The notes beneath the pieces were generated by a model. The model ran no database searches, had not been told where the DNA came from, and worked only from the letters and a program-made list of their open reading frames with translations. Both the position numbers and the translations under genes were made by a program. DNA of 64,000 bases, taken from an archaeon (GTDB lineage: Archaea > SpSt-1190 > DYHY01). Shown here piece after piece: positions 15,977 through 40,017 of the stretch (the stretch's first letter is position 1; the number at the start of each line of letters is the position of its first letter). Where the stretch lies: positions 30,568 through 94,567 of the forward strand of contig JBBIPP010000003.1 of assembly GCA_037442745.1 (NCBI GenBank), given 5' to 3'.

Positions 15977-18652
15977 CTATATCACGTAGAAGCTTTTCGC
16001 GAACCCGTTCGAAAACACTTCCCTGAACCTCTCCGTTCCCGCGCCGTCGAGAATGTATGTCCGGGTGAAAATGTTCCTGTCACCGCCTTTTGTTGCGTAA
16101 ATTGCCGCGCCCGGAATTAGTATTGCGCTTCCGGAATCCAGCTGGGCGCCGGACGAGTTTGTCTCAAAAACCCCGTCATAAGTAGCAATTGAGGAAAGTA
16201 CTGCTGCGCCCGCCTGTCCGGACACCCCTATTAGCGGGAGGGCAGTCCCGTTCTGGTCAACAATTGCAATGAAATATCCTCCGGAGGAATATATTCTTCC
16301 CTTGCCTAGCAGGGTGTCGGAATCCCTCAGATATGGGAACACTGCGTATTGGACGGGACGAAGGCCTATGCTTGAAGCCGCCGACATTTTTCCTATCATT
16401 GTGGAATCGTGCGTCATTAGCCTCGGGGGCTTTAGCTTGTTCTCAAAAGGGGAGTATCCGAAAATTAGATTTCCTCCTTCGGCCCGGAGATACGGCTCTA
16501 TTCTTGTCTTGTCCCCGACCCTCTCAAGGGAGACTTCCCCTTCGTTGAAAGGCGTTGTCAAGCCTATCTGGACTGTGCTAATTTCGCCAGCCTCGGGAAC
16601 CTGGACTTGCCCTTCCCTGCCGGAATAGACCTCCCTATAATTCACAAGGAGTTTGGCTGAATATTCGCCTTCCGGGAGTTCTGAGAGGTTGACGGAATAT
16701 CCGGAGCAGGTCTTTTGCCTTGGTCCGGGATTGTCCCCGACGCATTCGCCCTTGATTAATGTCTTTTCGGGAAGGAAGCGGGGATAGAAATCCTCCGCAT
16801 AAACCTCGTTGGAATATTCGTATGTCTTGTCCCCTTTTGAAAGGGTGAGAGTGACTATTGGATAGTGCATTGTTGTCATCCAGTCGGCCGCCCTGTTCTC
16901 GTCAGAATCAGTGAACATTAGCCCGAGCTCTTGGTTCATTTTCAATATCCTGTTTCCGCCGTCGGCAACAGATGGCCTCCTAGCGAAATACTGTATCCAG
17001 TAGCCATAGTCCCACCATGCGAGAACCGGGCTCTCTTTTGCGAGGTTCTGGTCGCTCCATTTGAAGTTCTCGAACCATTCGGAATTGACAGATGTCCTTA
17101 TTCCCGAAGCGGAACTGAGAACAGTTGGATAGAGCTGGACGAATATTGCGAGGACAATGAATGCGGCAGCCCATTTGGGAGCGGATTCGGGAAAATTCCT
17201 CGAAATTGCCCCTATTGCAATTGCAACTCCCGCAAGCCCGAGGAAAATATAGACAAGAATAGGCTCTTTCGAGAATCCGGCGAACAGGAATCCTGTTGAG
17301 ACAAGAATCCCCCCGAAAATCAGGGACAGCGACTTGTTCTTCGAGTTGCGGTATAGTGATGTTATTGCCTGGCCTGCGGCGAACGCGACTATTGGCGCAA
17401 GGCTAACGAAAAACCGGACGCCCCTGCTCGCAGAATAGAGGTTGAATGCAAGGAGGCAGGCAGTCAGCAAATCCTCGTCCCTCTTTGAGAAGAAGAGTGC
17501 AGGGAAAATCCCTAGGGAGAGCGCGAAAACAAGCCCAAGCTGGAGCCAATATGTGTTCGCGCCCTGGGCGAATGCTGGCTCCCATGGGAATGCCCATGAG
17601 GTCGGCTGGTTCTCGCCAACCGTCCCTCCGTGGATCGAGTATCTAAGGGGGTTTGAGAATTGGCGGGTTATTGAGGAGACTGTTTCAACAGGGTTGTTTC
17701 CTGTTGCAAGGAGGATTACGAGTCCGGCAAGGAGAGTGGCCACAACCGAAAGCCAGAGGAGGGTGCTGTTGGAAAGCTTTTTTTTCGGGAAAATTCTGTC
17801 AGAATATCTGAAGAAAAGATATGCTATTACCGGAAATGCCGTTGCTCCGTATAATGCGAGGTTCAGGGACGATTTCGCGAAAACGAGTCCTCCTGTGTTC
17901 CCATACCACAGGCGCATTATTACTGGAAAGATGACAAATGGGATTGTTCCAAGAACATTCGCTTTTGCCCTGTACCTAAATGCCTGGACTGCCGTGAAAA
18001 GCAGTACAGGAGCAACATAGAGAACGTATGAGGAAAGGGAGAGGGCGGCGAGCCCCATTGATATTCCGGCAAATGCCCCGAAAATCAGTATTGAGCCGAT
18101 TCTCTCCTCCTGAATATATCTGTAAACGAAATAAATGGAGATTGTCATTAAGAAGAACGCGGCAGTGTCCTTGTCAGTGAATCCGGCAACTGACCGAAAC
18201 ATTGCGCCCGGAACAATTGCGAAAAGGAGCGCTCCTATGAACCAGTCCTTCCCCGCCCTGTATCCTAGATAGGCGAGAACAATTACAGTCAGTATTGTGA
18301 ATATTGGCGCATACCATTTGGACGCCGATTTGACTCCCTCGAAGGTTGAAAGGCAAAATGGGTTTATTCTGCAGAGGAATGCGACGGAATATGTCGGGAC
18401 ATGGTAGTCCCCTCCGTCATATATCAGGGGGTAATACCGGTCAGTCTCGGAAGAGGGCAGTTCCCCTGTTCTGATAATTTCCTCCGCCTTGTTATGGAAA
18501 TACATTGTGTCGAACTCGAGAAGGTGCGGGTCGTCTAGGCTCTGTAGCCTCGTGAATAGTGTGAGAAGTATTGTTGCAAAGACTGCCAGAATCGCGAGTA
18601 TTCTTGCGAAATTTGCTCTTTTTTTGGGAAACTTGTTTTCGCTCTCTTGCAT
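15977..18652 (-). CDS. aglB: oligosaccharyltransferase AglB (STT3 family)
   Basis: 891 aa with a multi-TM N-terminal domain and the WWDYGYWI motif (LAWWDYGYWIQYF). Confidence 0.9.
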   Translation of the reverse strand: MQESENKFPKKRANFARILAILAVFATILLTLFTRLQSLDDPHLLEFDTMYFHNKAEEIIRTGELPSSETDRYYPLIYDGGDYHVPTYSVAFLCRINPFCLSTFEGVKSASKWYAPIFTILTVIVLAYLGYRAGKDWFIGALLFAIVPGAMFRSVAGFTDKDTAAFFLMTISIYFVYRYIQEERIGSILIFGAFAGISMGLAALSLSSYVLYVAPVLLFTAVQAFRYRAKANVLGTIPFVIFPVIMRLWYGNTGGLVFAKSSLNLALYGATAFPVIAYLFFRYSDRIFPKKKLSNSTLLWLSVVATLLAGLVILLATGNNPVETVSSITRQFSNPLRYSIHGGTVGENQPTSWAFPWEPAFAQGANTYWLQLGLVFALSLGIFPALFFSKRDEDLLTACLLAFNLYSASRGVRFFVSLAPIVAFAAGQAITSLYRNSKNKSLSLIFGGILVSTGFLFAGFSKEPILVYIFLGLAGVAIAIGAISRNFPESAPKWAAAFIVLAIFVQLYPTVLSSASGIRTSVNSEWFENFKWSDQNLAKESPVLAWWDYGYWIQYFARRPSVADGGNRILKMNQELGLMFTDSDENRAADWMTTMHYPIVTLTLSKGDKTYEYSNEVYAEDFYPRFLPEKTLIKGECVGDNPGPRQKTCSGYSVNLSELPEGEYSAKLLVNYREVYSGREGQVQVPEAGEISTVQIGLTTPFNEGEVSLERVGDKTRIEPYLRAEGGNLIFGYSPFENKLKPPRLMTHDSTMIGKMSAASSIGLRPVQYAVFPYLRDSDTLLGKGRIYSSGGYFIAIVDQNGTALPLIGVSGQAGAAVLSSIATYDGVFETNSSGAQLDSGSAILIPGAAIYATKGGDRNIFTRTYILDGAGTERFREVFSNGFAKSFYVI

Positions 18653-18740
18653 TTCGTCCGTTTGGCTCTTCTTGGGTGTTTTTTAAAACCTTTTTAGGGG
18701 AATTGTGTTTTAAAGCCGGGAAACCCCCCGTTTTCGGCAG

Positions 18741-19700
18741 ATGGGGCGACCGAGTTTCGTTGTTAGTGGTGGGGCGGGGTTCGTTGGTTCCGCGCTTGTC
18801 CGGGAGATTTTGGAATCCAGAAAAGGAACGCAAGTCATTGTAATTGACAATCTTTCCTCGGGGAAAAAGGAGAACATCCCTCCGGGAGCCTTCTTTTTGC
18901 CGATTGACCTCGCAAAAGAGTCTCCCGGCGAGATTTCCAGAGCAATTTCCGGAGCGGAAACTGTCTTCCATCTTGCCTCAAACGCCTCCGTTCCGAGAGG
19001 CGGAATTAACAGGTTCTTTGATTTGAAGAACAATGTCGAAGGGACTGTTAGGCTCCTTGAGGCGTGCGCGCTTTCGGGAAGCGTGAAAAGAATTGTCCTT
19101 GCATCGAGCTCCGCAGTATATGGTCTTCGGGCGGGGAGACGTCCCTCAGAGACCGCTCCTTGCGAGCCAATATCAATGTACGGGGCGTCGAAGCTCGCCT
19201 GCGAGGGGTATTTGTCCGCGTATTGCAACAATTTCGGGTTCGAAGGAAGCGTTTTCAGGATTGCGAACATTGTAGGAAGGGGGCAGGAGAGAGGCATTCT
19301 CCACGACATTTTCTCAAGGAAAGGCGACTTGGCTCTCTTCGGAAATGGCGCTGAGAAAAAATCCTATTTGCACGTGAATGACTGCGTTTCGGGAATTCTT
19401 GCGGGCGCCTTTTGGGGAGGCGCTGTTCCGGGGAAGGTGGAAACTTTCAACCTTGGCTCGGATTCGGCAATCTCCGTAAAGGCGCTGTCAGCAATTGCCC
19501 TCGGGGAAATCCGCAGGAAGACTGGGCGTTCGCCCGCCCTCTCTTTTTCGGGAAAACCGAGTTGGCCGGGAGACGTCCCTGAAATGCGCCTAAATTGCAG
19601 AAAGCTGAAAAGCATCGGCTGGATCCCTGAACTAAAAAAGAGCGCGGATGCTATTGAGCGTGCGGCAGAGGAACTTTCGGACAGGTGGCTTGGAAAATGA
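18741..19700 (+). CDS. NAD-dependent epimerase/dehydratase (UDP-sugar 4-epimerase-like SDR)
   Basis: 319 aa. GGAGFVGSALV Rossmann motif and a YGASK catalytic YxxxK. Confidence 0.8.
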   Translation: MGRPSFVVSGGAGFVGSALVREILESRKGTQVIVIDNLSSGKKENIPPGAFFLPIDLAKESPGEISRAISGAETVFHLASNASVPRGGINRFFDLKNNVEGTVRLLEACALSGSVKRIVLASSSAVYGLRAGRRPSETAPCEPISMYGASKLACEGYLSAYCNNFGFEGSVFRIANIVGRGQERGILHDIFSRKGDLALFGNGAEKKSYLHVNDCVSGILAGAFWGGAVPGKVETFNLGSDSAISVKALSAIALGEIRRKTGRSPALSFSGKPSWPGDVPEMRLNCRKLKSIGWIPELKKSADAIERAAEELSDRWLGK

Positions 19701-20584
19701 AAAGAAAAATATCTGTTATCTGCACTGTCCGAAACGAGGAGAGTGCGCTGAATGCGCTCGTTGATTCCATTCTTTCCCAGAAAAGGTTGCCTGATGAGAT
19801 AGTGTTCGTTGACGGGGGGTCTGTTGACCGGACGCTTGAAATCCTGAAAAGCTATGGAAAAAAGCTCCGGGTAATCTCGAGCCCCGGGGCGAACATTGCC
19901 GAGGGGAGAAACATTGCAATAAGGAGCGCGAAGGGGGAATGGGTTGCCTCAATTGATGGGGGATGCGTTGCGGACAAAGACTGGCTACTGAATCTTGAGA
20001 GGAAAATGTCGTTTGCTGATGTTGTCTCTGGCGCATATCTTCCTATTGGAAAAACTCGATTCGAAAGGGTTCAGGGAAGAGTTGTCGTGAAGAACCCGGA
20101 GAAGTTGGATTCGAAGAGTTTTCTTCCATCCTCCCGCTCAGTTGCTTTCAAGAAATCCGTCTGGCTTGCTGTCGGGGGCTATCCTGAGAACACATATACT
20201 GCGGAGGACACCCTTTTCGACATGAAACTGAAGCGGGCGGGCTTTAGGTTCGCTCTTGCGAGGGACGCGATTGTTTTCTGGAGAATGAGAGCGACCCTTT
20301 CAAAATTCGCAAAACAATTCTTCCTTTATGGCAAAGGGGACGGAAAAACCGGGCTCGTTTTCCGGATGCCGTTGAACCTCGCAATGGCAACCTGTTTCCT
20401 TCTAGCTTTTGCTCTCTTGTTCCTCGGGAATTTCTGGCTCCTTGGGGCAATTATGGGGGCGCTCGTTCTTGTGGGATTTTCAAAATCCCGGTCAGTTCAA
20501 GAATTCCCGATTGCCCTTCTTTTAGTGTCTGTGAAGAGGATTGCATATTCGGTGGGCGTTTTTTGGGGGCTTGTCCAAAAATGA
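19697..20584 (+). CDS. GT2 family glycosyltransferase
   Basis: ISVICTVRNEE...VFVDGGSVDRT...IDGG. ATGA start/stop overlap with the upstream epimerase indicates translational coupling. Confidence 0.75.
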   Translation: MKRKISVICTVRNEESALNALVDSILSQKRLPDEIVFVDGGSVDRTLEILKSYGKKLRVISSPGANIAEGRNIAIRSAKGEWVASIDGGCVADKDWLLNLERKMSFADVVSGAYLPIGKTRFERVQGRVVVKNPEKLDSKSFLPSSRSVAFKKSVWLAVGGYPENTYTAEDTLFDMKLKRAGFRFALARDAIVFWRMRATLSKFAKQFFLYGKGDGKTGLVFRMPLNLAMATCFLLAFALLFLGNFWLLGAIMGALVLVGFSKSRSVQEFPIALLLVSVKRIAYSVGVFWGLVQK

Positions 20585-21813
20585 AATTTCCCGGACCATC
20601 CTCCTTCGTGGGGAAAAAAAAGGATGCAATATTCCTCTCGGGTGCGAACCTGATGAATTATGCCCTCTCAATGCTTGCGGGGATTGTTGCCGCGGGAATT
20701 CTCGGGCCGGAGCAGTACGCAACAAAGGTTCTTGTTTTCTCAATTGTCGGCCTTGTGGCATCGTTCTCCGACCTCGGAATATCCTTTGCCGTAATGAAGG
20801 ATGGCGGGGGAAAGGGTGGCTCCAGGACGTTCTCATCGGGCTTGTGGCTGTCAATAATTTCCGGCGCAGTGTTTTTCGTACTCTTGTTCCCCGCATTCGT
20901 TCTTGTTGGCAGGGGATATGGAATATCTGAACCCTTTCTCTTTGCAATCTATGCGGGAACCGGGCTACTAAAGCAGATCTCGTCAATAGGATATTCCTAC
21001 CTTGTTTCGAGGGAAAGGGCGGGGGTTGCCGCTAGTCTAAACGCGGTTGCCGGAATTTCCTACTTAATTCTGGTCTTGGCGCTCACGTGGGCTCTTGGGC
21101 TTTTCGGATTCTTCCTTGCGGTCTTCCTCTCAAGCCTTCTAGACGCCTCTCTGAAACTTTTTTGGGCTTTCCGCGAACTGGGAAGGGCGCCCATTGCTTT
21201 TTCGGGATTCGGCCCTATTGAAAAATCGATTGTTACAACAGGGCTTGCCTCGACAGGAATGAGTTTGCTTTCATATGTCGCGCTGAATTCCTCGAAGTTC
21301 GCGCTTGGTCTCCTGTCAGACAGGGCCATTGTCGCATATTTCGCAATAGCGCTCCTTCCAATATATCCCATAATTGTAGTTTCCGGATCAATTGCTTCGA
21401 GCATTGTCCCAAGAGTCAGGAGGGCGCGGGGAAATGAAAGAATGAGGCTTGTCGGAAAATCTCTCCGCTATTCCGCTCTTGCCGGATTTGGGATAGCCTC
21501 CATTGCAGTGCCCGGCTATTGGATTCTGACAAACGCGTTCCTTCCAAAATACTCGCCTTCGCTTGCGCTCCTCGCGTTTCTTGCGGTTCCGATAGCTATT
21601 GAAGGTGGAATTAGCTCTATTTCGGCAACATTCCTATTGGCAATGGGCCGGAACCGGGAGGCGCTTTTTGCAAGGGCTGTCGGAGTTATCCCGATTCTGG
21701 TTCTGGGGCCGATCTTGACTTTGCAGTTCGGGGTCTGGGGGACAATTGCCGCTTTTTGGGCAGGCTCCCTTCTTGGGGGGGTTCTCCTCCTGAGAACAGT
21801 CCTGAAGAATTAA
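20581..21813 (+). CDS. Wzx-like polysaccharide/oligosaccharide flippase (MOP superfamily), copy 1
   Basis: About 410 aa, 12 predicted TM helices. ATGA overlap with the upstream GT2. Paralogous to 24426..25529. Confidence 0.7.
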   Translation: MKFPGPSSFVGKKKDAIFLSGANLMNYALSMLAGIVAAGILGPEQYATKVLVFSIVGLVASFSDLGISFAVMKDGGGKGGSRTFSSGLWLSIISGAVFFVLLFPAFVLVGRGYGISEPFLFAIYAGTGLLKQISSIGYSYLVSRERAGVAASLNAVAGISYLILVLALTWALGLFGFFLAVFLSSLLDASLKLFWAFRELGRAPIAFSGFGPIEKSIVTTGLASTGMSLLSYVALNSSKFALGLLSDRAIVAYFAIALLPIYPIIVVSGSIASSIVPRVRRARGNERMRLVGKSLRYSALAGFGIASIAVPGYWILTNAFLPKYSPSLALLAFLAVPIAIEGGISSISATFLLAMGRNREALFARAVGVIPILVLGPILTLQFGVWGTIAAFWAGSLLGGVLLLRTVLKN

Positions 21814-22931
21814 CGCAGTCTGCCAGAGAGGACTTGCTCGTATATTTTCCGGTATTTCTCAATTACGGTTTTTTCCGAATGGAATTTCTCAATATGCTTT
21901 CTCGCGGAAATCCTGTCCGAGTGCTTTAGGGACCGGACAGCCGAAAAGAACCCGGCTTTGTCCCTGAACTCCTTTATCGGAGCTCCCTTTTCGCATCCGC
22001 AATCTCCTGATACTCCGATAACTGGGACTCCTTCGGCCATTGATTCAAGGCCGTTATATCCAAGCCCCGCGGGCTCAAAAGTCACAATTGCCGACATTTT
22101 TGAGACTGCTCTTCTGACCTCTGCCGGGCTGGGGAGCCTGTAGAAAAATATCTTCTTCTCCGCGCCCTCCTTTTTTGCAAGGGCTTTTAGGGAGTTCTCG
22201 AGGGGCCCATATCCTATAATGTGAAGTTCCGCTGATTTGTCAATTTCGCGGGAATATTGGGCGAACCAAGACACTAGCGTGTCAAGACGTTTCAAGGGTA
22301 TGTATCTTGAAACTGAGCACAATCGCGTCCTATCGGGCGCTTTCCCGGGGCTTTTGGCGATTTTTGAGACCGCGTGCTGTATAACGACTTTTTTGTCCGA
22401 ATATGGATATATTTCTGAGAGCATTTTGGTGTTGAAAACGAGGAGTTCGCTTCGGCAAGCGGCAATTTCCGAGATCTTCCTGGCCAAACTGGATGCAACA
22501 ATTGATTTTGGGAATTTCCTCCCGGAAAACATTTTTGAGGCATAGTTTAGGCTCCCGTGAACGTGGGTTACTGTCGGCTTTTCGCAATACATTGAGTATA
22601 TTTCCCCGTTTGCGTGGCAGAGGTCGAACTTCCCCTTCCGGAAAATTGCCCGGATTTTTGGGCGAAGAATCGGGATGTTCAGGAGATGCTCTAGGGACAC
22701 GGGATCCTTTGACGGATAGAACCGCGTCCTTGTTGCAAAGAGCGCGCGTTTTTCCTTCGCCTGGGCTTCCTGAGCGGGCGAGCAGATGAACGCGTTTTCA
22801 TGAGATATTTTCGCTCGGGAGAGGGCAGAGTTGTGCCAAGAGAAGAATGTCTCTACTCCTGCAGGCTTGAGGGAGCCATCGGGAAGATAGGGATAATGGG
22901 TGAGTGTGAGGAGGTTCATTACAGGTTCCAA
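21810..22931 (-). CDS. GT4 family glycosyltransferase
   Basis: 373 aa. C-terminal E-x7-E motif (EPAGLGYNGLESMAEGVPVI). Confidence 0.7.
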   Translation of the reverse strand: MEPVMNLLTLTHYPYLPDGSLKPAGVETFFSWHNSALSRAKISHENAFICSPAQEAQAKEKRALFATRTRFYPSKDPVSLEHLLNIPILRPKIRAIFRKGKFDLCHANGEIYSMYCEKPTVTHVHGSLNYASKMFSGRKFPKSIVASSLARKISEIAACRSELLVFNTKMLSEIYPYSDKKVVIQHAVSKIAKSPGKAPDRTRLCSVSRYIPLKRLDTLVSWFAQYSREIDKSAELHIIGYGPLENSLKALAKKEGAEKKIFFYRLPSPAEVRRAVSKMSAIVTFEPAGLGYNGLESMAEGVPVIGVSGDCGCEKGAPIKEFRDKAGFFSAVRSLKHSDRISARKHIEKFHSEKTVIEKYRKIYEQVLSGRLR

Positions 22932-22973
22932 CTTTTCGCCTAGTATTTAAAATCTGGAGGTGGATTTCCACGG

Positions 22974-23273
22974 AAATGAGAATACTTCATGTCACGCCCT
23001 TTTTTTCTCCCCATATTGGCGGGGTCGAGAGACACGTCCTTGAGGTTTCCCGGTGCCTTGCTGAAAAGGGGCATTCCGTCTCTGTCTTCACTGTCGCCCA
23101 TGAAAAGGGGCTGTCTGAGAGGGAAACTATCGGACGAGTCAGGATAATCCGCGCCCCTTTCTGGGGAATGGGGTATTTCTCACGTCTCTTTTCGGCTTGG
23201 TGGTTTGTCATCAGGAACTGGAAGGAATTTCGGGAGTTCGACATAACCCATCTCCATGATTTTCCTGCTTTCG
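22974..23273 (+). repeat. direct repeat copy 1 (300 bp), near-identical to 25524..25784 except a 39-bp in-frame indel and about 3 SNPs
   Basis: Direct sequence comparison. Identity begins 2 nt before the ATG and ends after ...HDFPAF. Confidence 0.85.
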
Positions 23274-24028
23274 CCTGGCTCCTCTTTCTTCCGGAAAAAA
23301 AGACAATCACTTTCCATGGGTATGAAAGGGACCCTGTGACTCTCAAGCACAAGGTATTGAGGAAGATTGCCGAAAAATTCACCCGCTCGAACTTTTGCGT
23401 TGGAACGCATCTTGTCGGGCATTATGGCACGGCCTGCCCGAAAGAGAGGATATTGGTTGGCGGGGTTGATTCCGGAAAAATCAAAAGGCGGGCAGTTCCC
23501 TTCCGGAAAAAGGAACGGAAGAAAATATTGTTCCTTACGCGCCTCGCATGGGATACCCAGATAAGGGAATTCGTCCTCGCAATGAGGCACCTTCCCGGGT
23601 TTTCCCTCGAAGTTTATGGGGAAGGCCCTTTGAAAGAAGAGCTGACAAAACTCGCGAAAAGCGAGCGCCTTAAAGTTCGGTTCCTTGGAAAATGGCCGGG
23701 CGACTCTAACGACCTCTTCAGGAAATACAGGTTCGTCTTTGCCGCGCGACAACTGACAATTCTTGAGGCTCTCGGGAACGGGGCAATTGTCTTCTCAGTC
23801 CACACATCGGAAATAATGAAAAATCTCCTTATTGGAATGGGTTCCCCGAGGGAAACCCACATTCTTACGGGCTCGGTCGGGGAGCTGGCAGAGCGCTTTA
23901 GAGAAATTGCAGGGGAGCCGGAAAACTCCCTGCTCCTGCGTTCGGAGAAGGGGAAAAAATACGCCCTCTCGTTCGATTGGGAAAAGATTGCAAATAGCTA
24001 TCTGAGGGAGTATTCCCGGATTCTCTAA
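22976..24028 (+). CDS. GT4 family glycosyltransferase (copy A of a partially duplicated gene)
   Basis: 350 aa. MRILHVTPFFSPHIGGVERHV... typical GT4 N-terminus. First 300 bp are near-identical to the 5' end of 25526..26536. Confidence 0.75.
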   Translation: MRILHVTPFFSPHIGGVERHVLEVSRCLAEKGHSVSVFTVAHEKGLSERETIGRVRIIRAPFWGMGYFSRLFSAWWFVIRNWKEFREFDITHLHDFPAFAWLLFLPEKKTITFHGYERDPVTLKHKVLRKIAEKFTRSNFCVGTHLVGHYGTACPKERILVGGVDSGKIKRRAVPFRKKERKKILFLTRLAWDTQIREFVLAMRHLPGFSLEVYGEGPLKEELTKLAKSERLKVRFLGKWPGDSNDLFRKYRFVFAARQLTILEALGNGAIVFSVHTSEIMKNLLIGMGSPRETHILTGSVGELAERFREIAGEPENSLLLRSEKGKKYALSFDWEKIANSYLREYSRIL

Positions 24029-24037
24029 GGACAACTT

Positions 24038-24565
24038 TCACTTCTTTGCAAGGTTCGCGATTGTCTCCGCAATGAATTCCGCGTCCGCTTCCGAGACTGA
24101 TGCGTGGACAGGAAGAGCCAACACCTCTTTTGCGGCTTTTTCGGCCTGCGGGAGAATCTGGGCGTTCCATTCAGAATAGGATTTCTGCTTGTGAACGGGT
24201 ATCGGATAGTGGATTCCTGAGCCTATTCCCTTCTCTTTTAGTTTTTCAATAAGGGCGTCCCTGTCAAGGCCGTATTCGTCCGGGAGAACGCGTATAACAT
24301 ACTGGTGGAAAACGTGCTTCCTTCCTGGGAGGACTTTTGGGACAATAATTCCCGGGACTTTGGAGAGGCGGGCGGAGAGTATTTTCGCGTTCCGTCCCCT
24401 TGTCCAGTTCCTGTTATCGAGATGAGTGAGCTTCTTTGTCGCGTTCGCGGACCTCGGGATACAGTTCTCCCTTCTAAGAGAGATTGGGAGCAGAAAATCC
24501 GAAAAAGCCAGGCGTTTCCTCCTTTCAAGGGGTCTTGCGATAAACTCTCTGACTGTTTTTGTTTT
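24038..24565 (-). pseudogene. DegT/DnrJ/EryC1/StrS aminotransferase, N-terminally truncated remnant (C-terminal about 150 aa only, no start codon)
   Basis: Stop-to-stop frame with no Met translates to ...RKHVFHQYVIRVLPDEYGLDRDALIEKLKEKGIGSGIHYPIPVHKQ...LALPVHASVSEADAEFIAETI, the classic DegT C-terminus. It overlaps the start of flippase copy 2. Confidence 0.6.
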
Positions 24566-25529
24566 CTACTGGGTCGCCCTCTTGGCGTTCATCCCTATTG
24601 GGCGCGCTTATGGAATAGGAAACCCGTTCTTCCTAGTTTCCCTCTCTGCTGCATTCAGCATAAAGCAGATTGCCGCCCTCCTATTCTCATATTCTGCGGG
24701 AAAGAGGATGTTCAAACAGCTGTCAGAAGCAATTGTCCTCTCGGCAATTGCGTATTCCGTCCTAGCAATATTTCTGACAATGCTCTTCGGAATAAGAGGA
24801 CTTTTCTGGGCGATTCTTGCCGGTTCGATAATAGACGCGTTCCTAAAGGCTGGAATGGTGAACTTGCGCACGGCGGACGTCTGGGCCCTTGGAAAATCCT
24901 TCTTCAGGTTCGGCTCGCCTGAGGACAGGCTTCTCGTCTCCGGAGGTCTTGTTTTCATGGCATCAACCTGGTTCGCAACTGCGCTTCAGAATTATGACGA
25001 CCTCATTCTGGGGGCTTTCCATGAAAAAGGGCTTGTGTCGTATTATGCAGTTGCATACCTCCCGATTTTTCCGATGCTTGTTGCAGCAAACTCAATATTC
25101 GCAGCACCCCTTCCGGGAATCTCTTCCCTCTCTGGGCCCGAAAAAAGGAGGGTTTTTGGCAAGTCCGTGAAATACGCCTGCCTCGTCTCTTCCGCCTTGG
25201 CCATTGCCGGAATTCCCGCATATTTCTTTCTGACTGAATTCTTCCTCGAGAAATACGCGCTCTCAGCGACTCTTCTGACTTTCCTCGCAGTCCCGTTCAT
25301 AATAGAGTCCGGCGTGAATAACACAACAGTCAATTTCCTGATTGCGTTCGGCATGAACCGCGTGTCCTTTGCAATGAGGGGGATTCAGCTAACCATCTCG
25401 GTCATATTCGGCTTCTTCCTGATAAGGGAGTTCTGGATATGGGGAGCGGTCGCCTCCGTCTGGATGAGTTCTCTTTCAGGTCTTGCCCTCTCGGCTTTCT
25501 TCTACTTCAAGGGAGAATTTTTCAAATGA
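24426..25529 (+). CDS. Wzx-like flippase, copy 2 (GTG start directly after an in-frame TGA; lacks about 65 N-terminal residues relative to copy 1)
   Basis: FADLGIQFSLLREIGSRK aligns to residue about 68 of copy 1 (FSDLGISFAVMKDGGGK). ATGA-coupled to the downstream GT4. Confidence 0.55.
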   Translation: MSFFVAFADLGIQFSLLREIGSRKSEKARRFLLSRGLAINSLTVFVFYWVALLAFIPIGRAYGIGNPFFLVSLSAAFSIKQIAALLFSYSAGKRMFKQLSEAIVLSAIAYSVLAIFLTMLFGIRGLFWAILAGSIIDAFLKAGMVNLRTADVWALGKSFFRFGSPEDRLLVSGGLVFMASTWFATALQNYDDLILGAFHEKGLVSYYAVAYLPIFPMLVAANSIFAAPLPGISSLSGPEKRRVFGKSVKYACLVSSALAIAGIPAYFFLTEFFLEKYALSATLLTFLAVPFIIESGVNNTTVNFLIAFGMNRVSFAMRGIQLTISVIFGFFLIREFWIWGAVASVWMSSLSGLALSAFFYFKGEFFK

Positions 25530-25784
25530 GAATACTTCATGTCACGCCCTTTTTTTCTCCCCATATTGGCGGGGTCGAGAGACACGGCCTTGAGGTTTCC
25601 CGGTGCCTTGCTGAAAAGGGGCTGTCTGAAAGGGAAACTATCGGACGAGTCAGGATAATCCGCGCCCCTTTCTGGGGAATGGGGTATTTCTCACGTCTCT
25701 TTTCGGCTTGGTGGTTTGTCATCAGGAACTGGAAGGAATTTCGGGAGTTCGACATAACCCATCTCCATGATTTTCCTGCTTTCG
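25524..25784 (+). repeat. direct repeat copy 2 (261 bp) of 22974..23273
   Basis: Direct sequence comparison. Confidence 0.85.
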
Positions 25785-26536
25785 TATGGGCATTGCCACT
25801 CTTCGGGAAGAGAGCAATTACTTTTCATGGTTTTGAGCACGACCCGCCCAAGTTCTATAACAAATTGCTGAGGAAACTCGCGGAAAAGTCTGTCGGCTCC
25901 GTTTTCTGCGTGGGAAAATATCTTAGGAGAATTTATGGCACGAGATGTCTTGACAAGAACATAATTGTCGGGGGGGTTGAATGGAAGAGATTCTCGGGCA
26001 ATAGGAAAAGGATAAGGAATAAGATTGTTTTTCTGAGACGCCTTGAAGGGGACAACCATCCGTTGGAGTGTATTGAGGCGCTTTCCGGAACGGGAATCGG
26101 AATAGATTTCTACGGGAAAGGCTCTCTCGTCGCAAAGGCAAGGGCGTTTTCTGTTGAACGGGGGGTTTCGGCGAGATTTTTCGGAGAAACAAAACATCCA
26201 GAAAATATCCTTCCCAGATACGAACTGGCTTTTGCGTCAAAACAGCTCGCAATCCTCGAATCCCTTGCTTCCGGATGCGCCGTATTCTCGCTTCACTCTA
26301 GCAACCTCCAAAAAGAGCTTTTGAAAGGAATGGGTCTTCCGAGAAAAGTGGTCGCGGATTTCCTGGTTTCTGACATCAAGAAGGCTGGGAGAGAAATTTC
26401 CGCGAGAATGATATCAGGTGGCGGGACCGGTTCCGGGATATCTTTCCGGAGAAGGCTTGCGAGAAAGTTCGGCTGGGAGAAAGTTGCCGATACGTACGAG
26501 AGGGAATACTTACGTCTGTTCAATGACCTTCCCTGA
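25526..26536 (+). CDS. GT4 family glycosyltransferase (copy B; N-terminal 87 aa almost identical to copy A, remainder diverged)
   Basis: ATG at 25526 overlaps the flippase-2 stop (ATGA). MRILHVTPFFSPHIGGVERHG...; downstream is homologous but diverged from copy A. Confidence 0.7.
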   Translation: MRILHVTPFFSPHIGGVERHGLEVSRCLAEKGLSERETIGRVRIIRAPFWGMGYFSRLFSAWWFVIRNWKEFREFDITHLHDFPAFVWALPLFGKRAITFHGFEHDPPKFYNKLLRKLAEKSVGSVFCVGKYLRRIYGTRCLDKNIIVGGVEWKRFSGNRKRIRNKIVFLRRLEGDNHPLECIEALSGTGIGIDFYGKGSLVAKARAFSVERGVSARFFGETKHPENILPRYELAFASKQLAILESLASGCAVFSLHSSNLQKELLKGMGLPRKVVADFLVSDIKKAGREISARMISGGGTGSGISFRRRLARKFGWEKVADTYEREYLRLFNDLP

Positions 26537-27524
26537 AAACCTCGATCTTGTTCGTCCGCTCGAGCCATTTCTTGTATTTGGATATTTCCCTTAGATAGTC
26601 TGGAAAGATTTCCGAGAGTCTTGAGGGCGCGCGGGAATCTTTTTCTAAGACGAGCGGGTCGAGGAACCTTGCTTTTCTAGAGATTACATAGTCCCATTTT
26701 TTGTCGTTGAATTTTATTCTGGTCCTCTTCGATATGAGGGAGAGTTTTTCTCGTATTTTGAAGTTGGAATTCCTGACAAGCTTCGCCATGAACTCCTTTT
26801 CGGTCAGCTTCGTCAAGTCCTCCCCAGTTATTATCCCTATCCTCAGGCCTTCGGCGATTGCTTCTGCGAGGAATTTCGAGAAAGTGTTTTGGATCGGGCT
26901 CGCCCATTCAGAATAGGAGAGCTGGAGATATTTCTTAGATGCTAATAGGGCATTTCTCATCCCGGAGAACGCGAACATCCACCTTCCCCCGAAATCCAGC
27001 ATCTTGACAGATGCAAGTATCCTCTCCGCTTGGACCCTTGAGAGCTTACCGACAGTCACCCCGTCCCTGAGGAAATAGTCTATCCTGTCTGCCGAAAGAT
27101 CTGGGAGCTCTGCCGTGAGAAGGGGGTTCTCCCCCCTGATAACTTCCTTCAAGCTCAATCCGTGCCTTGAGAGTATCCCGGGGATTTCCGACGATTCGAG
27201 CGTTGCCTCGAAAATCTTGTCATGGTAGCTCTTCTCATCGCTATCGAATATCTTGTCAATCACGTGGGAGAATACTGTATGGGAAATGTCGTGGAGGAGC
27301 CCGGCCAGACACTCTTCCCTCGGGGCTCCGAACAGGACAAGTATGTGATAGACTCCTATCGAATGTTCGAGCCTTGTCGTGTTCTTGTGGGGATCCGAGA
27401 GAACGACAGCGCCGTATTGGTTTATCCCAGAGAGTCTCCTCATCGACTTGGACCTTATTATCGCCTCTGCCAGGGGATCGGATATTGAAATCCTTCCATA
27501 AACCTTGTCGTTCAGGGAAAGCAT
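26520..27524 (-). CDS. HD-domain metal-dependent phosphohydrolase
   Basis: 334 aa. HSIGV...LLHDISH...D motifs of the HD superfamily. Confidence 0.65.
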   Translation of the reverse strand: MLSLNDKVYGRISISDPLAEAIIRSKSMRRLSGINQYGAVVLSDPHKNTTRLEHSIGVYHILVLFGAPREECLAGLLHDISHTVFSHVIDKIFDSDEKSYHDKIFEATLESSEIPGILSRHGLSLKEVIRGENPLLTAELPDLSADRIDYFLRDGVTVGKLSRVQAERILASVKMLDFGGRWMFAFSGMRNALLASKKYLQLSYSEWASPIQNTFSKFLAEAIAEGLRIGIITGEDLTKLTEKEFMAKLVRNSNFKIREKLSLISKRTRIKFNDKKWDYVISRKARFLDPLVLEKDSRAPSRLSEIFPDYLREISKYKKWLERTNKIEVFREGH

Positions 27525-27600
27525 TCTCTTCGGAAAGGTTTTCCTGAAAAGGGTTTAATAAACTGTTCCTAGAAGCGTCCCGGTAAGAAGGCATACATAA

Positions 27601-28455
27601 TTGTTTAAAAGGCTGCTACGGTTCTTCTGGGAACATATGACTATTCGCCAAGGATTTTTCAGGAAAAGGGATTTCGTCGCGGTGATTCTTGCGGGCGGAG
27701 AGGGTTCAAGGATAGGACTCCCATTTTCCAAATGCCTCCTTCCGGTTGAGGAAGGCAGACCCCTCCTCCTAAAGCACATCAACTATCTCCATAAGGCAGG
27801 GATTAAAGAATGGATTTTCGTGATAAATCCTGCGCAGACGGACATATTGAAGTTCATTGCGAAGGAGACTCCGGAGGACACACGCTACCACATCGTCCTT
27901 CAGCCGGCTCCGGTCGGGATATCGGAGGCCCTGATGCGCGCGATCCCCTACATTCAGGAAGCGGACAACGCGATGGTCCTCCTTCCGGACACTTACATGA
28001 ACGGGGAGAACCCCTACGAAAAATTGAAGAAGGCGCATACAGCGGAGAAATCTCCTGGAGGGGTAACGCTCTGCCTCTGGTCGAAGGAGAACAATTTCGG
28101 AAGCCTCGATTTCGTGAAAACATCGGGAAATGTCTGGACTGAAATCGACCCGACCTTGAAGCACGACAGCAAGGGTTGGGGCTGGGGAGCGATCGCGTTC
28201 TCCGTTGATTCCCTCGCATCGAAGGAGAACCCATTTATACAGAAGGTCTATGGAAGAAACGAGAAAGTGATTGACAACATGGGCCTCCTCTTCACCGAAG
28301 TCAGGAAAACTGCGCTCATGCTTCCCTACAAGTATTGCAAGGTGAAAGGGGACCGGATTGACTGCGGGACAATCGAGGGCTTTACAAAGGCAGTCAATTA
28401 TGTCGGGCGAAGGGTCGGAGCCAAAGGGAAAGCACTAATAAAGAAAAGGAATTAG
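27601..28455 (+). CDS. sugar-phosphate nucleotidyltransferase (NTP_transferase family)
   Basis: VAVILAGGEGSRIG (G-x-G-x-R pyrophosphorylase motif). Real start may be the internal Met at about 27643. Confidence 0.65.
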   Translation: MFKRLLRFFWEHMTIRQGFFRKRDFVAVILAGGEGSRIGLPFSKCLLPVEEGRPLLLKHINYLHKAGIKEWIFVINPAQTDILKFIAKETPEDTRYHIVLQPAPVGISEALMRAIPYIQEADNAMVLLPDTYMNGENPYEKLKKAHTAEKSPGGVTLCLWSKENNFGSLDFVKTSGNVWTEIDPTLKHDSKGWGWGAIAFSVDSLASKENPFIQKVYGRNEKVIDNMGLLFTEVRKTALMLPYKYCKVKGDRIDCGTIEGFTKAVNYVGRRVGAKGKALIKKRN

Positions 28456-28462
28456 TTGGAAA

Positions 28463-29578
28463 TCAGTTTTTCCTCTCTGAGACTGCGAGAATTTCCCGCT
28501 CGATCTCTCCTGCTATCTTCTCCCATGAAAATTTTCGGGCGAATCCCCTCGAAATCCCGGGAACTCCCTTATTCTTGAGCGCCCTCTTCGCATTTCCTAT
28601 CTGCTTGAAAAATCCCGCTTTTCCATCGGAGAGGAATCCCGCCGGTAGAGGGGCAGTTACTTCGGGGAGGGACGCGGAATTCAATGTGACTGATATTTTT
28701 CCGCATGCGGAGGCCTCGAGGGGAGGGATGCCGAATCCTTCCCAGGAGGACGGATGGAGATAGATGTCTAGGGCGTTGAAGAATCCGTTCAGGTCCTTCT
28801 CTGGGAGGTTCTTAAGAAGGATCGCCCTTTTTCCTAGGGAATTTTTCTCGATAAAATCGAGATATTCCTTTTCCAGCTCCCCGCCGCCCGCAATCGCAAC
28901 AGTTACCGACTTGTCAAGTAAGGCATATTCCAGGAGATACTTGTGGTTCTTGTAGGGGACAAACCTCCCGATTGTTCCGAGGAAGAAGGCCTTCCTCGGC
29001 ACTCTGTATTTTCTCCGGAAGTTCTCTCCTTCTTTTTTGGATGGCTTCAGCCGTTCGGTGTCAATTCCGCAGTAAATCAAGCCATCCGACTTTCTAAAGT
29101 AGATTGCTTTCAGCTGACGCTCCATGTATTCGGAACAACATATGTTTCTTTTCGCGAGGAAAACCGTCGGGAATCCCGAAAGGTAGTTGTCTATCCAGCG
29201 GAGGGGATTTTTCAGAAACTCTGAGAAAACCGTGACTTGCCCCCAATAGTAGTTTATAGTCGGGATTCCGGAGAGAACTGCCGAGTTCGAAAGGATTGAG
29301 GTGTATGTGAATATGATGTCTGGGGAAATTTCTTTTATTTTATTCGGATAGAGGGAAAATTGCCTTATCCTTCCGAGAAAGGCTCCGCCATAAGGAACTG
29401 TTTCCGTTTTTATCCCCTCCTTCCTGATTAAATCAATCATTTCAGGCCGTGTGTTCTCGGAAAAGGTCAGGATTGTGACATCGTGGCCCTTTCTTCTCAT
29501 TGCCCTCGCTGCCTCAAAAATGAATCTTTGTTGCCCTGTCATAGATTTTGCGCTTGTGAGGGTGAAGAGTATTTTCAT
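28463..29578 (-). CDS. GT4 family glycosyltransferase
   Basis: Start at internal ATG 29578, ATGA-coupled to the upstream GT2. EGFGIPPLEASACG E-x7-E motif. Confidence 0.8.
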   Translation of the reverse strand: MKILFTLTSAKSMTGQQRFIFEAARAMRRKGHDVTILTFSENTRPEMIDLIRKEGIKTETVPYGGAFLGRIRQFSLYPNKIKEISPDIIFTYTSILSNSAVLSGIPTINYYWGQVTVFSEFLKNPLRWIDNYLSGFPTVFLAKRNICCSEYMERQLKAIYFRKSDGLIYCGIDTERLKPSKKEGENFRRKYRVPRKAFFLGTIGRFVPYKNHKYLLEYALLDKSVTVAIAGGGELEKEYLDFIEKNSLGKRAILLKNLPEKDLNGFFNALDIYLHPSSWEGFGIPPLEASACGKISVTLNSASLPEVTAPLPAGFLSDGKAGFFKQIGNAKRALKNKGVPGISRGFARKFSWEKIAGEIEREILAVSERKN

Positions 29579-30579
29579 TTCGAGACCTTCCTTATTATTG
29601 TCGATGCAATTAATTTCGCAGAGTTCGAAACAATGCAAAGAGGCCGTGCGACCGGCGCGAGGAGCCTGCTGGAAAGCGCTGTTTGGAAAAAGGTTCCGCC
29701 GAATTCCTTCGTTGAAAATTCCCTTATCTTCTCGGCAATCTCCCGGTTTCCCAAGGCAACGTTCTTCTCATACAGCCTGTCGGCAAGCTGTCGGGAACGG
29801 GAGATTATTTCTTCCCTTGACGGGATTTGAAGCCTTTTCGCGTGTTTCAGCGCCTCGAGATAGATCCTGTGGGTTTCCTCGAGATACATCGCATCCCGCC
29901 CAAACGAGATATTCGTCTTCCTAATTATGTCGGTTGCCAGAGGCTCTTTTATGTATGCTATTTTCTTCCCTGATAGAACTGTCAAGAGAAAGAAATAGAC
30001 GTCGAACGCCGCAGGGTATTTTCTGGGAAACCCCCCTATCTCCTTGAAGAGGGATTTCCGGAAAACTAGGGTCGTTATTCCTAATTCGAACCTGTTGCTC
30101 CAGCCTTTCACTAGAAGGACTTTGATGAAGTCGTTCTTTCCGAGCCTCTCCGGAATGTCAAAGACCCGCCTCTCTGAATATTTTCCGTCTTCGGTCGCCC
30201 TATAAAACCCCGAACAGACAATCCCGACATCCGGTTCCCGCTCCAGGATATCCAATGCCTTGCCGAGAAGCGTTGGCTCGTAGATGTTATCGTCGTGGAA
30301 AAGGGCGATGTATTTCCCGCGTGCGCCCTTTGCCGCCTCGTTGAAGTTCTCGAGCTGGAGTATTTTCTTCGGATGTATCTTGAACCGGACACGTGGATTT
30401 TTCAGCCCGCGCAGGTATTCCGCAGTGTCGTCATTTGACGCGCTGTCGGAAACAAATATCTCAAAGCTCCGCTCGGGCCTTGCCTCGGAGAGGAAAAATC
30501 TTACGTTCTTTTCGAGGAGCTCCCGACGGTTCATTGTCGGGATGCATATGGAGATTTCCGGATGTTTCCTTTCCGGCAA
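29575..30579 (-). CDS. GT2 family glycosyltransferase
   Basis: ISICIPTMNRRELLE...FVSDSASNDDT...FHDDD, GT-A DxD-type. Confidence 0.75.
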   Translation of the reverse strand: MPERKHPEISICIPTMNRRELLEKNVRFFLSEARPERSFEIFVSDSASNDDTAEYLRGLKNPRVRFKIHPKKILQLENFNEAAKGARGKYIALFHDDNIYEPTLLGKALDILEREPDVGIVCSGFYRATEDGKYSERRVFDIPERLGKNDFIKVLLVKGWSNRFELGITTLVFRKSLFKEIGGFPRKYPAAFDVYFFLLTVLSGKKIAYIKEPLATDIIRKTNISFGRDAMYLEETHRIYLEALKHAKRLQIPSREEIISRSRQLADRLYEKNVALGNREIAEKIREFSTKEFGGTFFQTALSSRLLAPVARPLCIVSNSAKLIASTIIRKVSK

Positions 30580-30585
30580 ACTGCA

Positions 30586-31641
30586 TCAGTTCTCCTCTAG
30601 TGTCCCGCGCTTCACTTTCTCGAAATCGGCAGATACCATTCTTTTCACGAGCTCCTTGAAAGCCACTTTCGGCTTCCAACCGAGCTCTTTTCTCGCCTTT
30701 TCAGGGTTCCCTATAAGATGCTCGACTTCTGCCGGCCTCATGTTGTCAGTTGTCGACACTATTAAAATTTGTCCTGTCTTTTCGTCGAATCCTTCCTCTT
30801 TTCCGCTCTTGTCCTTCCGCCAGGAGAGCTTCCAGCCGAGCTCCTTCGAGGCCTCTTCCGCGAACTCCCTCACGCTGTGGCACTCGCCGGTCGCAAGAAC
30901 ATAGTCGTCCGGGCTCTTCGCCTGGAGAATCCTCCACATCCCCTCCACATAATCGGGTGCATATCCCCAGTCTCTCTTCGCGTCGAGGTTCCCTAGATCT
31001 AGGGGAATCTTCCTCTCGCCCAGTTTTATCCTGGAGAGCTCTATTGTTATTTTCCTTGTAACGAACTGCGGGCCTCTCCTCTCGCTCTCGTGGTTGAATA
31101 ATATTCCGTTGACAGCGAACATTCCGTAGGACTCGCGGTAGTTCTTCACTGCCCAGAAAGCGAAGAGCTTTGAGAACCCGTATGGCGAACGGGGATAGAA
31201 CGGGGTTTTCTCTGTTTGGGGAATTTCGACAGCTTTCCCGAATAGTTCCGAGGTCGATGCCTGATAGATTTTCGTCTTCAGGCAGGACTGCCTGACCGCT
31301 TCCAGTAGCTTTAAGACTCCAAGGCCAGTCGCTTCGGCAGTCTCTATCGGCATGTCGAAGCTCGCTTTCACATGGGATTGCGCGGCGAGATTGTATATCT
31401 CGTCGGGCTTGGTTTTTCTCAGGATTGAGAGTATTGACATTAGGTCCGTCAGGTCCCCGTAATGGAGATGGAAGTCTGGATTGTCCCTTATCGCTCCTAT
31501 GCGCCAGGAAGTCGTCGCGTCAGACCTCCGGACAAGGCCGTGGACAACGTATCCTTTCGAAAGGAGAAGCTCCGCTAGATAAGAGCCGTCCTGGCCAACA
31601 ACGCCGGTTATCAATGCGGACTTTTTCTTCGGATTGAGCAT
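30586..31641 (-). CDS. gmd: GDP-mannose 4,6-dehydratase
   Basis: 351 aa. [32 protein letters not shown], hallmark GMD N-terminus. Confidence 0.85.
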
Positions 31642-31665
31642 GGAAATCCCCCGTCCCCTCTCGTT

Positions 31666-32775
31666 TTATAATTTGTCCCGCTTTCCGGGGAGAATTCTTC
31701 CTATTTCAGCCGCTATCTGGGTGGCAGACCTGCCCTCTCCGAAAGCCAGTCTGGCGTTCCTGGCTATTTTCCATTTCCCGGCTTTTGCCTTCTTCAGGTG
31801 ATGGGCAATTTCCTCCGGGACAATTGAGCGAACGGACGCCCCTGTTCTCTCAGCCTCCGTCCTCTCGGAATGCCTCCTGAACTGGATTGACGGGACTCCG
31901 AGATAGCACGCCTCTTCTGTCTCCCCTCCGGCGTCGGTCAGTATTGCCGTCGCGTTCGAAAGGAGGGAAAGGAACTTTTTCTGTGGGAGGAATCCTTCAG
32001 TCCGGGCAGTTTTTGGAATTCTTATTTTGAACTTCTCGGCCTGCCTTTTCAGGTTCTCGGGAAGTATCAGTATTGTCGGAAGGGGCGAGAGCTCAATTGC
32101 CCTGAAGAAATTCCTGATCCGCTCCTTGCTCGTTATGTTCTCGTGCCGGTGGAGCTTTGCAATTGCGTATTTGCCCTTGGGAATTTTTGCGGATCCCTTG
32201 GATTTCTTCGAGCGCAAGACATCGATATTCGTGTTCCCGGTAACGAATATCCTTGACCTCTGCTTCCCCTCAGAGAGGAGGTTTTGCGCCGAGTGCCGGG
32301 TCGGGCAGAAGAAATAGTCTGAGAGGGAATCTGCAAGGCGCCTTGAGAGCTCTTCGGGGAAAGGCTCTCTTGCGCTCCCGGAGCGGAGTCCTGCCTCAAT
32401 GTGCGCAAGCTTCTTTCCGACAAGTTTCGCACCGATTGCCCCGGCAGTTGTTGTCATTGTGTCTCCGTGGACAAGGACAAGGGAGATTTTCCTGTCTTCC
32501 GAGAGTTTTTTCGAAACCCATCCGATTGCCCGAAGAGCCCAAGTCCCCGCCGAGAGCTTGGATGAAAACCTTCCCCTTCCCCGGGCAGAAGAGTCAAAGA
32601 CGTGCTTTGGCGGGCGCATCTTGTTCTCTTTTAGGGCGTCCTCGATATTGTGCTGGCCTGTGAAGAATATTTCGTATGGAATTCTCCTTTTCTCAAGTTC
32701 GGAGACTATTGGGGAGATTTTTATGAGTTCAGCAATTGTTCCTATTACGAATGCGGCTTTTTTGCCGGGGCTCAT
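31666..32775 (-). CDS. UDP-N-acetylglucosamine 2-epimerase (non-hydrolysing, WecB/MnaA-like)
   Basis: 369 aa. FVIGTIAELIKISPI...FTGQH...LVHGDTMTT motifs. Confidence 0.8.
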   Translation of the reverse strand: MSPGKKAAFVIGTIAELIKISPIVSELEKRRIPYEIFFTGQHNIEDALKENKMRPPKHVFDSSARGRGRFSSKLSAGTWALRAIGWVSKKLSEDRKISLVLVHGDTMTTTAGAIGAKLVGKKLAHIEAGLRSGSAREPFPEELSRRLADSLSDYFFCPTRHSAQNLLSEGKQRSRIFVTGNTNIDVLRSKKSKGSAKIPKGKYAIAKLHRHENITSKERIRNFFRAIELSPLPTILILPENLKRQAEKFKIRIPKTARTEGFLPQKKFLSLLSNATAILTDAGGETEEACYLGVPSIQFRRHSERTEAERTGASVRSIVPEEIAHHLKKAKAGKWKIARNARLAFGEGRSATQIAAEIGRILPGKRDKL

Positions 32776-34241: not shown

Positions 34242-34291
34242 TCAGAGCCTTTCCTTTCGGGTGTTTTTTTAAAGTTCCCCATGTTTCGGGC

Positions 34292-39959: not shown

Positions 39960-40017
39960 ATTGGAAAATATGTCCAGTTGGTTCTATTTGTGGTTTTCTG
40001 GGAAATTCAGATTGGGT

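Follow-up and report, generated by a model that had tools for sequence, protein, structure and literature searches.

The window analysed here, a stretch of 64,000 nt from contig JBBIPP010000003.1 (all coordinates below refer to this stretch), carries in a large glycan-biosynthesis cluster two family 4 glycosyltransferase (GT4) genes, GT4-A and GT4-B, which start with nearly identical segments of 300 and 261 nt and are only distantly related over the rest of their length. The repeat is real, and comparison with related contigs indicates that GT4-A was the donor and GT4-B the recipient of the segment. The arrangement probably originated in three steps: replacement of a gene cassette downstream of GT4-A, gene conversion of the 5' end of the incoming GT4-B by GT4-A, and a slippage deletion, together with the V21G substitution, in the converted copy. 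The region 24038-26536 is best read as a fresh recombination scar, composed of two gene stumps and a probably crippled chimeric glycosyltransferase.

The shared segment and its direction of transfer

The genes, the two copies of the shared segment and the surroundings of the GT4-A start are located as follows.

22974..23273 (300 nt), plus strand: copy A of the shared segment, 5' end of GT4-A, apparent donor
25524..25784 (261 nt), plus strand: copy B of the shared segment, 5' end of GT4-B, apparent recipient
22976..24028, plus strand: GT4-A, intact, 350 amino acids (aa), glycosyltransferase of the GT-B fold
25526..26536, plus strand: GT4-B, 336-aa chimera with codons 1-86 apparently from GT4-A and codons 87-336 native, lacking strand beta2 and carrying V21G
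21810..22919, minus strand: divergent GT4 gene, 369 aa, flanking GT4-A in all relatives, 92% aa identity to L003
22944..22952: AT-rich box TATTTAAAA within the 56 bp that separate GT4-A from the divergent gene upstream, conserved in L003, L083 and L084

Both copies begin 2 nt upstream of the ATG (22976 in GT4-A, 25526 in GT4-B), lie in direct orientation 2.55 kb apart and are 99.2% identical over 261 nt, the differences being two mismatches and a single 39-bp gap in copy B. The first mismatch (T at 23037 in copy A, G at 25587 in copy B) changes V21 to G in GT4-B; the second (G at 23119, A at 25630) is synonymous and falls in E48. The longest exact run between the copies comprises 154 nt (23120-23273 = 25631-25784). 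Past 23273/25784, stretches of 100 nt are only 45-63% identical between the two genes, and the protein identity over the other 250 codons is 39%. Such a near-identical tract with far lower flanking identity in the same gene pair is the pattern of gene conversion. The probability of 259 matches in 261 positions arising by chance is about 1e-61, if a background identity of 56% is assumed, and no second repeat of at least 40 nt was detected anywhere in the 64-kb window. The tract spans the first base of gene homology (MRILHV) to just past the conserved HLHDFPAF motif, its 3' end lying within the stretch which is best conserved at the DNA level between GT4-A and its nearest GT4-B-like (B-type) relative (23249-23334, 73%).

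An earlier note on this DNA, which had placed the shared start 2 nt before both ATG codons, had described the rest of the genes as only distantly related and had read the sharp identity boundary as conversion between GT4 paralogues, agrees well with these data: the tract corresponds to codons 1-86 of GT4-B, and its identity is above the ~95% well below which that interpretation was to be abandoned. The content proposed for the interval between the copies (the 3' part of GT4-A, a DegT relic and a second flippase) was likewise correct. The number of single-nucleotide differences, put there at about three, has to be lowered to two, and the short direct repeat noted there at the borders of the 39-bp indel does exist, being longer than was described, the 11-bp TGAAAAGGGGC and not AAAAGGGG.

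The relatives compared were L003 (a 27.8-kb Logan contig encoding protein P0002), L083, L084 and L085. GT4-A is collinear with its orthologues in L003, L083 and L084 over the full length, and its 5' 297 nt are 85.5% identical to the L003 orthologue, a value close to the regional 84%. The 39 bp are present in every relative, and so is the T at the first mismatch. The 5' tract of GT4-B is 82-93% identical to GT4-A of L003, no more distant from it than GT4-A of the window is, and the remainder of GT4-B only 42-62%; thus, the donor is orthologous to the genes of the relatives and the recipient is discordant between tract and remainder, as conversion would leave them. At the protein level the 5' segment is clearly of the GT4-A-like type (A-type), with 87% aa identity to P0002 against 52-53% to P0003 and P0049. 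Because the 5' end of GT4-A is orthologous to those of the relatives and keeps the 39 bp, and because the tract of GT4-B is GT4-A-like and its remainder is not, GT4-A is assigned as the donor and GT4-B as the recipient. The second mismatch gives no polarity, since L083 and L084 have the base of copy B. The copies differ at 0.8% of sites, compared with 14.5% between the same segment and the L003 orthologue, which indicates that the conversion was recent. In this ectopic conversion the start of GT4-B, the paralogue arriving with the cassette, would have been overwritten by the 5'-terminal 300 nt of GT4-A, the gene already in place.

The AT-rich box TATTTAAAA upstream of GT4-A, judged by its composition and conservation, may serve as a TATA-like promoter element. 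It is not present upstream of GT4-B; copy B did not receive it, as the shared segment begins at position -2. Upstream of its start the GT4-B frame stays open over 29 codons (25439-25525), as far as another in-frame ATG at 25439, which lies within the end of flippase-2, and the start chosen by gene callers, 25526, agrees with the MRILHV start of the family.

The window sequence corresponds to contig CAZBJK010000003.1 of the metagenome-assembled genome (MAG) GCA_964492285.1. The Logan assemblies of the single runs SRR11582162 and SRR11582163 yielded contigs 100% identical to the window, and four of these each end exactly 30 nt inside a repeat edge, all four edges being covered.

L093 and L094: run up to 23003, covering the first 30 nt of copy A
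L091: 23244-25553, covering the last 30 nt of copy A and the first 30 nt of copy B
L089: runs from 25755, covering the last 30 nt of copy B

Contig L091 carries the 3' part of GT4-A, the DegT relic, the DegT/flippase joint and flippase-2, so all four repeat edges and the internal joint are present in independent assemblies. The Logan graph is built with k = 31, and breaks 30 nt inside the edges are what such a graph should give at a true two-copy repeat. Given that the independent assemblies are 100% identical to the window and break in this manner at all four edges, the repeat does not represent an assembly collapse, an eventuality considered in the earlier note.

The strain-specific cassette and its left joint

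The interval 17483-24432 of the window aligns to L003 at 84.2% and the interval 31729-36117 at 82.1%, the DNA between them being unrelated. The features around the left boundary of this unrelated segment are listed below.

24433..31728 (7.3 kb): strain-specific cassette with the truncated flippase-2, GT4-B, an HD-domain protein, a nucleotidyltransferase, GT4, GT2 and an epimerase
24432..24433: illegitimate joint, left cassette boundary, cutting DegT and flippase-2 at one point
24038..24432, minus strand: relic of a DegT/DnrJ/EryC1 aminotransferase, last 131 codons plus stop, without a start codon
24426..25529, plus strand: flippase-2, Wzx/MOP-like, reading frame open, stop overlapping the GT4-B start (ATGA)

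In L003, GT4-A is followed by a full-length DegT gene (365 aa) and then by genes for GFO/IDH/MocA, an epimerase, a methyltransferase, an ATP-grasp protein and HAD; the equivalent of the cassette is 5.2 kb long there and consists of the 5' part of DegT and the genes after it. Synteny returns at 31729, a point within Epimerase_2 some 60 nt from the 3' end of that gene. On the left, the alignments with L003, L083 and L085 (the latter two with 86-87% nucleotide identity) all stop at 24432 though the contigs continue, and in L083 and L085 DegT runs past the breakpoint. The joint itself lies inside the independent Logan contig L091. P0003 and P0005, more remote A-type genes with an identity of about 52%, likewise have DegT and GFO/IDH genes beside them. 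Since DegT stands beside the A-type gene in L003, L083, L085 and near these distant homologues alike, the arrangement with DegT is the ancestral one.

The DegT relic covers only residues ~235-365 of the 365-aa DegT of L003 in tblastn, and thus it does not encode a full-length fold of the pyridoxal phosphate-dependent type. Its frame is undisrupted, and of the codon differences from L003, 17 are synonymous and 4 non-synonymous; we conclude that the truncation is recent. Flippase-2 is truncated as well: a stop codon stands directly upstream of its GTG, its residue 6 aligns to residue 67 of flippase-1, and all full-length homologues (402-445 aa) found among 1.84 billion cluster representatives align to it from their residues 59-83. 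It therefore lacks ~60-80 N-terminal residues and, judging from where these alignments begin, about two transmembrane helices, its N-terminal transmembrane region being incomplete. In Pfam, neither a match of flippase-2 at E<=0.01 nor recognition of the minus-strand open reading frames over the DegT relic was obtained; the homology of both was established by tblastn, BLASTP and phmmer. Members of the flippase-2 family are very rare, with only 12 proteins at E<=0.001 in the same set of cluster representatives, the best non-self match being 40% identical.

In the first of the proposed steps, the segment after GT4-A containing the DegT, GFO/IDH, epimerase, methyltransferase, ATP-grasp and HAD genes would have been replaced by a different cassette, with a clean right end at the conserved end of Epimerase_2 and, on the left, an illegitimate joint cutting both DegT and the incoming flippase-2. 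A clean right end combined with a truncating left joint would fit the pattern of one-sided, homology-anchored illegitimate recombination.

The A-type GT4 genes always adjoin DegT (L003 6558-8666; L004 1764-3873; L005 771-2916; contig ends of L083 and L085), and in L003, L004 and L005 a GFO/IDH/MocA gene is found nearby as well. No other copy of DegT or GFO/IDH/MocA is present in the 64-kb window, both having been lost from the window strain, and GT4-A may have lost the pathway which makes its donor sugar.

A search with the C-terminal part (C-part) of GT4-B returned no orthologue closer than 48%, and the native 5' end was not recovered; among the sampled genomes none has the same cassette as the window. 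A scan of genome contigs with an alignment of A- and B-type sequences, in a collection without the source MAG, gave no close relative: the best full-length match is 34% identical, and at the end of a Candidatus Micrarchaeum contig 101 residues align with 49% identity. The nearest relative of the GT4-B C-part, P0049, adjoins a homologue of the divergent minus-strand GT4 gene (L006 3-983 and 1004-2062), that is, it occupies the position held by GT4-A in the window, which hints that A-type and B-type genes may be alternative occupants of one slot. P0049 itself was considered as a B-type allele at the GT4-A position and rejected, its identities to the C-parts of A (42%) and B (47%) being too even for an assignment.

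The two glycosyltransferases and the 39-bp deletion

GT4-A, 90% identical at the aa level to its orthologue P0002, matches Pfam Glyco_transf_4 with E=2.3e-17. The N-terminal domain PF13439 is recognized in both proteins (64 bits in GT4-A and 36 bits in GT4-B, at a cut-off of 28.5). With the C-terminal Glycos_transf_1 profile GT4-A scores 25.6 bits (cut-off 26.4) and GT4-B gives no match; precomputed Pfam matches list PF00534 for GT4-A. The AlphaFold 2 model of GT4-A (predicted local distance difference test, pLDDT, 94.4) displays strand-helix alternation in both halves, that is two Rossmann-like domains, as in the GT-B fold. Its top Foldseek matches are MshA, glycogen synthase, PglH, BshA and PimA, with a probability of 1.0 and template modelling scores of up to 0.78-0.81; the profile match to the PglH/WlaC structure 6eji has E=1e-18, and profile and Foldseek searches point to MshA, PglH/WlaC, BshA and PimA. 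GT4-A thus shares the two-Rossmann architecture with the solved GT4 structures of PglH/WlaC (6eji), PimA (2gej, 4n9w), MshA (3c48) and BshA (5d00), but sequence identity to them is only 13-20%, and its subfamily lacks the first Glu of the EX7E motif expected in the C-domain of GT4 enzymes. The second Glu is near-invariant (E264 in GT4-A, E245 in GT4-B), and the residue 8 positions upstream is Ala (subfamily consensus FASxYLxILEA). The C-part of GT4-B retains all invariant and near-invariant residues of the family, so that GT4-B must have been functional until recently.

The 39 bp missing from copy B are flanked in copy A by the following repeats.

23062-23072 and 23101-23111, plus strand: 11-bp direct repeats TGAAAAGGGGC

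The lost sequence encodes HSVSVFTVAHEKG, residues 33-45. In the GT4-A model this includes strand beta2 (residues 34-40, SVSVFTV), situated between the helix 16-30 and the hairpin 49-60; the possibility raised in the earlier note that the indel might fall in a surface loop does not hold, as a whole core strand of the N-terminal Rossmann domain is removed. The model of GT4-B has no beta2; residues 11-30 have a pLDDT of 54-60, and at the scar itself (residues 26-32) the value drops below 50. Among 61 family members GT4-B alone lacks the 39-bp segment. It is likewise the only one with Gly at position 21, which is V, I or L in 56 of the 61. In the third of the proposed steps, slippage or recombination between the 11-bp repeats would have deleted the 39 bp from copy B, the V21G substitution also arising there. 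With beta2 gone from the model and a glycine in helix alpha1, GT4-B is probably crippled. In the relatives the first repeat reads CGAGCGAGGGC or CGAGGGGGGGC, the perfect 11-bp repeat with its 39-bp spacing being specific to the GT4-A allele of the window lineage. Since the intact GT4-A carries this perfect repeat, it is predisposed to the same deletion of beta2.

Alternative readings, known systems and genomic setting

Several observations speak against the proposed sequence of events. The 5' 297 nt of GT4-A (22976-23272) are more diverged than its 3' part (23273-24028), with identities of 85.5 vs 90.6% to L003 and 82.2 vs 88.1% to L083 (p about 0.02), although L003 and L083 show no such 5'/3' contrast between themselves; the raised divergence in the window includes both synonymous and non-synonymous changes and leaves room for a more complex history of the 5' part of GT4-A. 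No relative of the GT4-B C-part comes closer to it than 47-48% identity, hence the 5' end before conversion is a reconstruction. Paralogues with ~55-60% DNA identity are poor substrates for homologous recombination, and template switching or another illegitimate process may have acted instead of classical conversion. AlphaFold confidence is no measure of stability, and GT4-B, whose frame is open and whose C-part keeps every conserved residue, may still be active. Lastly, the interior of copy B with its mismatches and deletion is seen only in the MAG contig, itself represented by two NCBI contigs, and is absent from the short Logan contigs. Considering the divergence of the GT4-A 5' end, one could suppose that the shared segment came with the cassette or from another strain and overwrote GT4-A, or that both genes were converted from an unsampled donor, the segment being 5-6 percentage points less identical to the orthologues of L003 and L083 than is the remainder of GT4-A. 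We regard such a course as very improbable: the 85.5% equals the regional average of 84%, the segment is of clear A-type as measured against P0002, P0003 and P0049, and the private changes, namely the deletion and V21G, sit in copy B. Still less probable, indeed extremely unlikely, is that copy B or the chimeric GT4-B was made by mis-joining of strains in a co-assembled MAG. The source record is indeed a MAG, the 154-nt exact run exceeds common k-mer sizes, so that the assembler had to resolve the copies, and the variants inside copy B lack independent contigs; however, the single-run Logan contigs of two runs hold every unique-to-repeat joint as well as the DegT/flippase joint without a single difference and break as for a genuine repeat, the private variants of copy B cannot arise by collapsing copy A, and both GT4 proteins are encoded on two NCBI contigs (102,637 and 102,691 bp).

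It is quite improbable, too, that the repeat is functional, its identical 5' ends being kept by selection or serving as a substrate for deletion or amplification which switches the glycan composition through a GT4-A(5')/GT4-B(3') hybrid under the GT4-A promoter. A deletion of the RecA/RadA type is feasible between copies in direct orientation that share an exact run of 154 nt, a crossover within this run would yield a hybrid with intact beta2, the topology of the de Bruijn graph is also compatible with a mixed population, in which a chromosome with the deletion coexists with a circle or tandem array of 2.5 kb, and diversifying selection acts on surface-glycan loci (PMC5867893). On the other hand, a 27-mer conserved in both copies and in all relatives matched only the known L083 contig among metagenome contigs of the JGI and revealed no variant, searches of 5.8 billion proteins returned no hybrid protein, and the Pfam annotations over the region from GT4-A to GT4-B and ~10 kb on either side include no recombinase or invertase. 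That copy B carries damaging changes speaks against selection acting on it, and the intervening DegT and flippase-2 are remnants. The on/off switch of glycan composition suggested by the earlier note thus finds no support in the genes annotated nearby, the contigs or the gene content between the repeats, and as the deletion would be irreversible, it could not act as an on/off switch. Repeat-mediated deletion is physically possible; that RadA actually excises the C-domain of GT4-A with the DegT and flippase stumps in a subpopulation, leaving a hybrid of A (5', intact beta2) and B (3') under the GT4-A promoter, seems highly unlikely. If true, it would be a one-way domain swap altering the surface glycan of a DPANN-like archaeon, a form of variation in glycans for which no archaeal example has been described.

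The history preferred here, cassette replacement followed by conversion and slippage deletion, comprises events of a known kind. Conversion between paralogues is well known in bacterial surface genes, such as babA/babB and futA/futB of Helicobacter pylori, and homology-facilitated illegitimate recombination has been described for the transformation of Acinetobacter and Streptococcus pneumoniae. The clusters of archaeal N-glycosylation are strain-variable, with within-gene recombination and replaced segments (PMC5867893, PMC7002104): the former concerns aglJ, aglD and aglB of Haloferax (PMC5867893), and the latter is exemplified by divSEG18 of Halobacterium salinarum, a replacement segment with a boundary 18 codons into aglB (PMC7002104). 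As in the H. pylori and Haloferax agl cases, the window has a short near-identical tract in diverged homologues, a non-reciprocal transfer, an intact donor and genes which shape the surface. It differs from them in that the pair is only ~39% identical outside the tract and lies 2.55 kb apart in direct orientation, the recipient was later deprived of a core strand, nothing points to recurrent or adaptive use, and the host is an uncultured DPANN-like archaeon. With divSEG18 it shares the swap of a block of glycosylation genes between close strains beside conserved flanks, one boundary being inside a coding sequence, but this boundary is an illegitimate joint leaving the DegT and flippase-2 stumps rather than a homologous in-gene crossover. 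The Acinetobacter and S. pneumoniae process resembles the window in having one clean end in a conserved gene (here Epimerase_2) and the other joined without homology, with truncation of genes.

The locus is therefore a fresh, well-resolved example from an unsampled lineage and not a new mechanism or system. It brings three types of recombination side by side in one archaeal surface-glycan locus, i.e., cassette replacement with an illegitimate joint, paralogue conversion and deletion at microhomology, all of them recent enough for the stumps to have escaped decay, and documents the diversification of such loci in an archaeal lineage from which very little has been sampled. It also carries a warning for annotation, since GT4-B and flippase-2, both called as intact genes, are probably remnants.

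The genes for the large and small subunits of PolD, Orc1/Cdc6, archaeal SecD and RtcB mark the organism as archaeal. The closest named relatives of the PolD small subunit belong to an unclassified 'archaeon' (70% identity), and DPANN groups reach at most 41%; the window derives from the chromosome of an uncultured, DPANN-like archaeon with an AglB-linked glycan-biosynthesis cluster. The repeat sits in this large cluster (11918-38560, ~27 kb), which includes an 891-aa STT3/AglB, GT2 and GT4 genes, flippases, epimerases and PMT_2 proteins, and also two UDP-N-acetylglucosamine 2-epimerase-like genes, an LPG_synthase_TM protein and several nucleotidyltransferases.

11918-13540 and 32772-34241: two PMT_2/ArnT-like proteins
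13537-15261: carbamoyltransferase
15977-18652: AglB

Beyond the cluster, the stretch 40001-41000 has a guanine-plus-cytosine content of 38% compared with ~50% elsewhere and lies just upstream of orc1/cdc6 (40840-42246), which is followed by the genes for the small and large subunits of PolD (42335-47380). A simple repeat scan of this stretch before orc1 found no convincing repeats of the origin recognition box (ORB) type. The stretch 40001-41000 is likely a replication origin.

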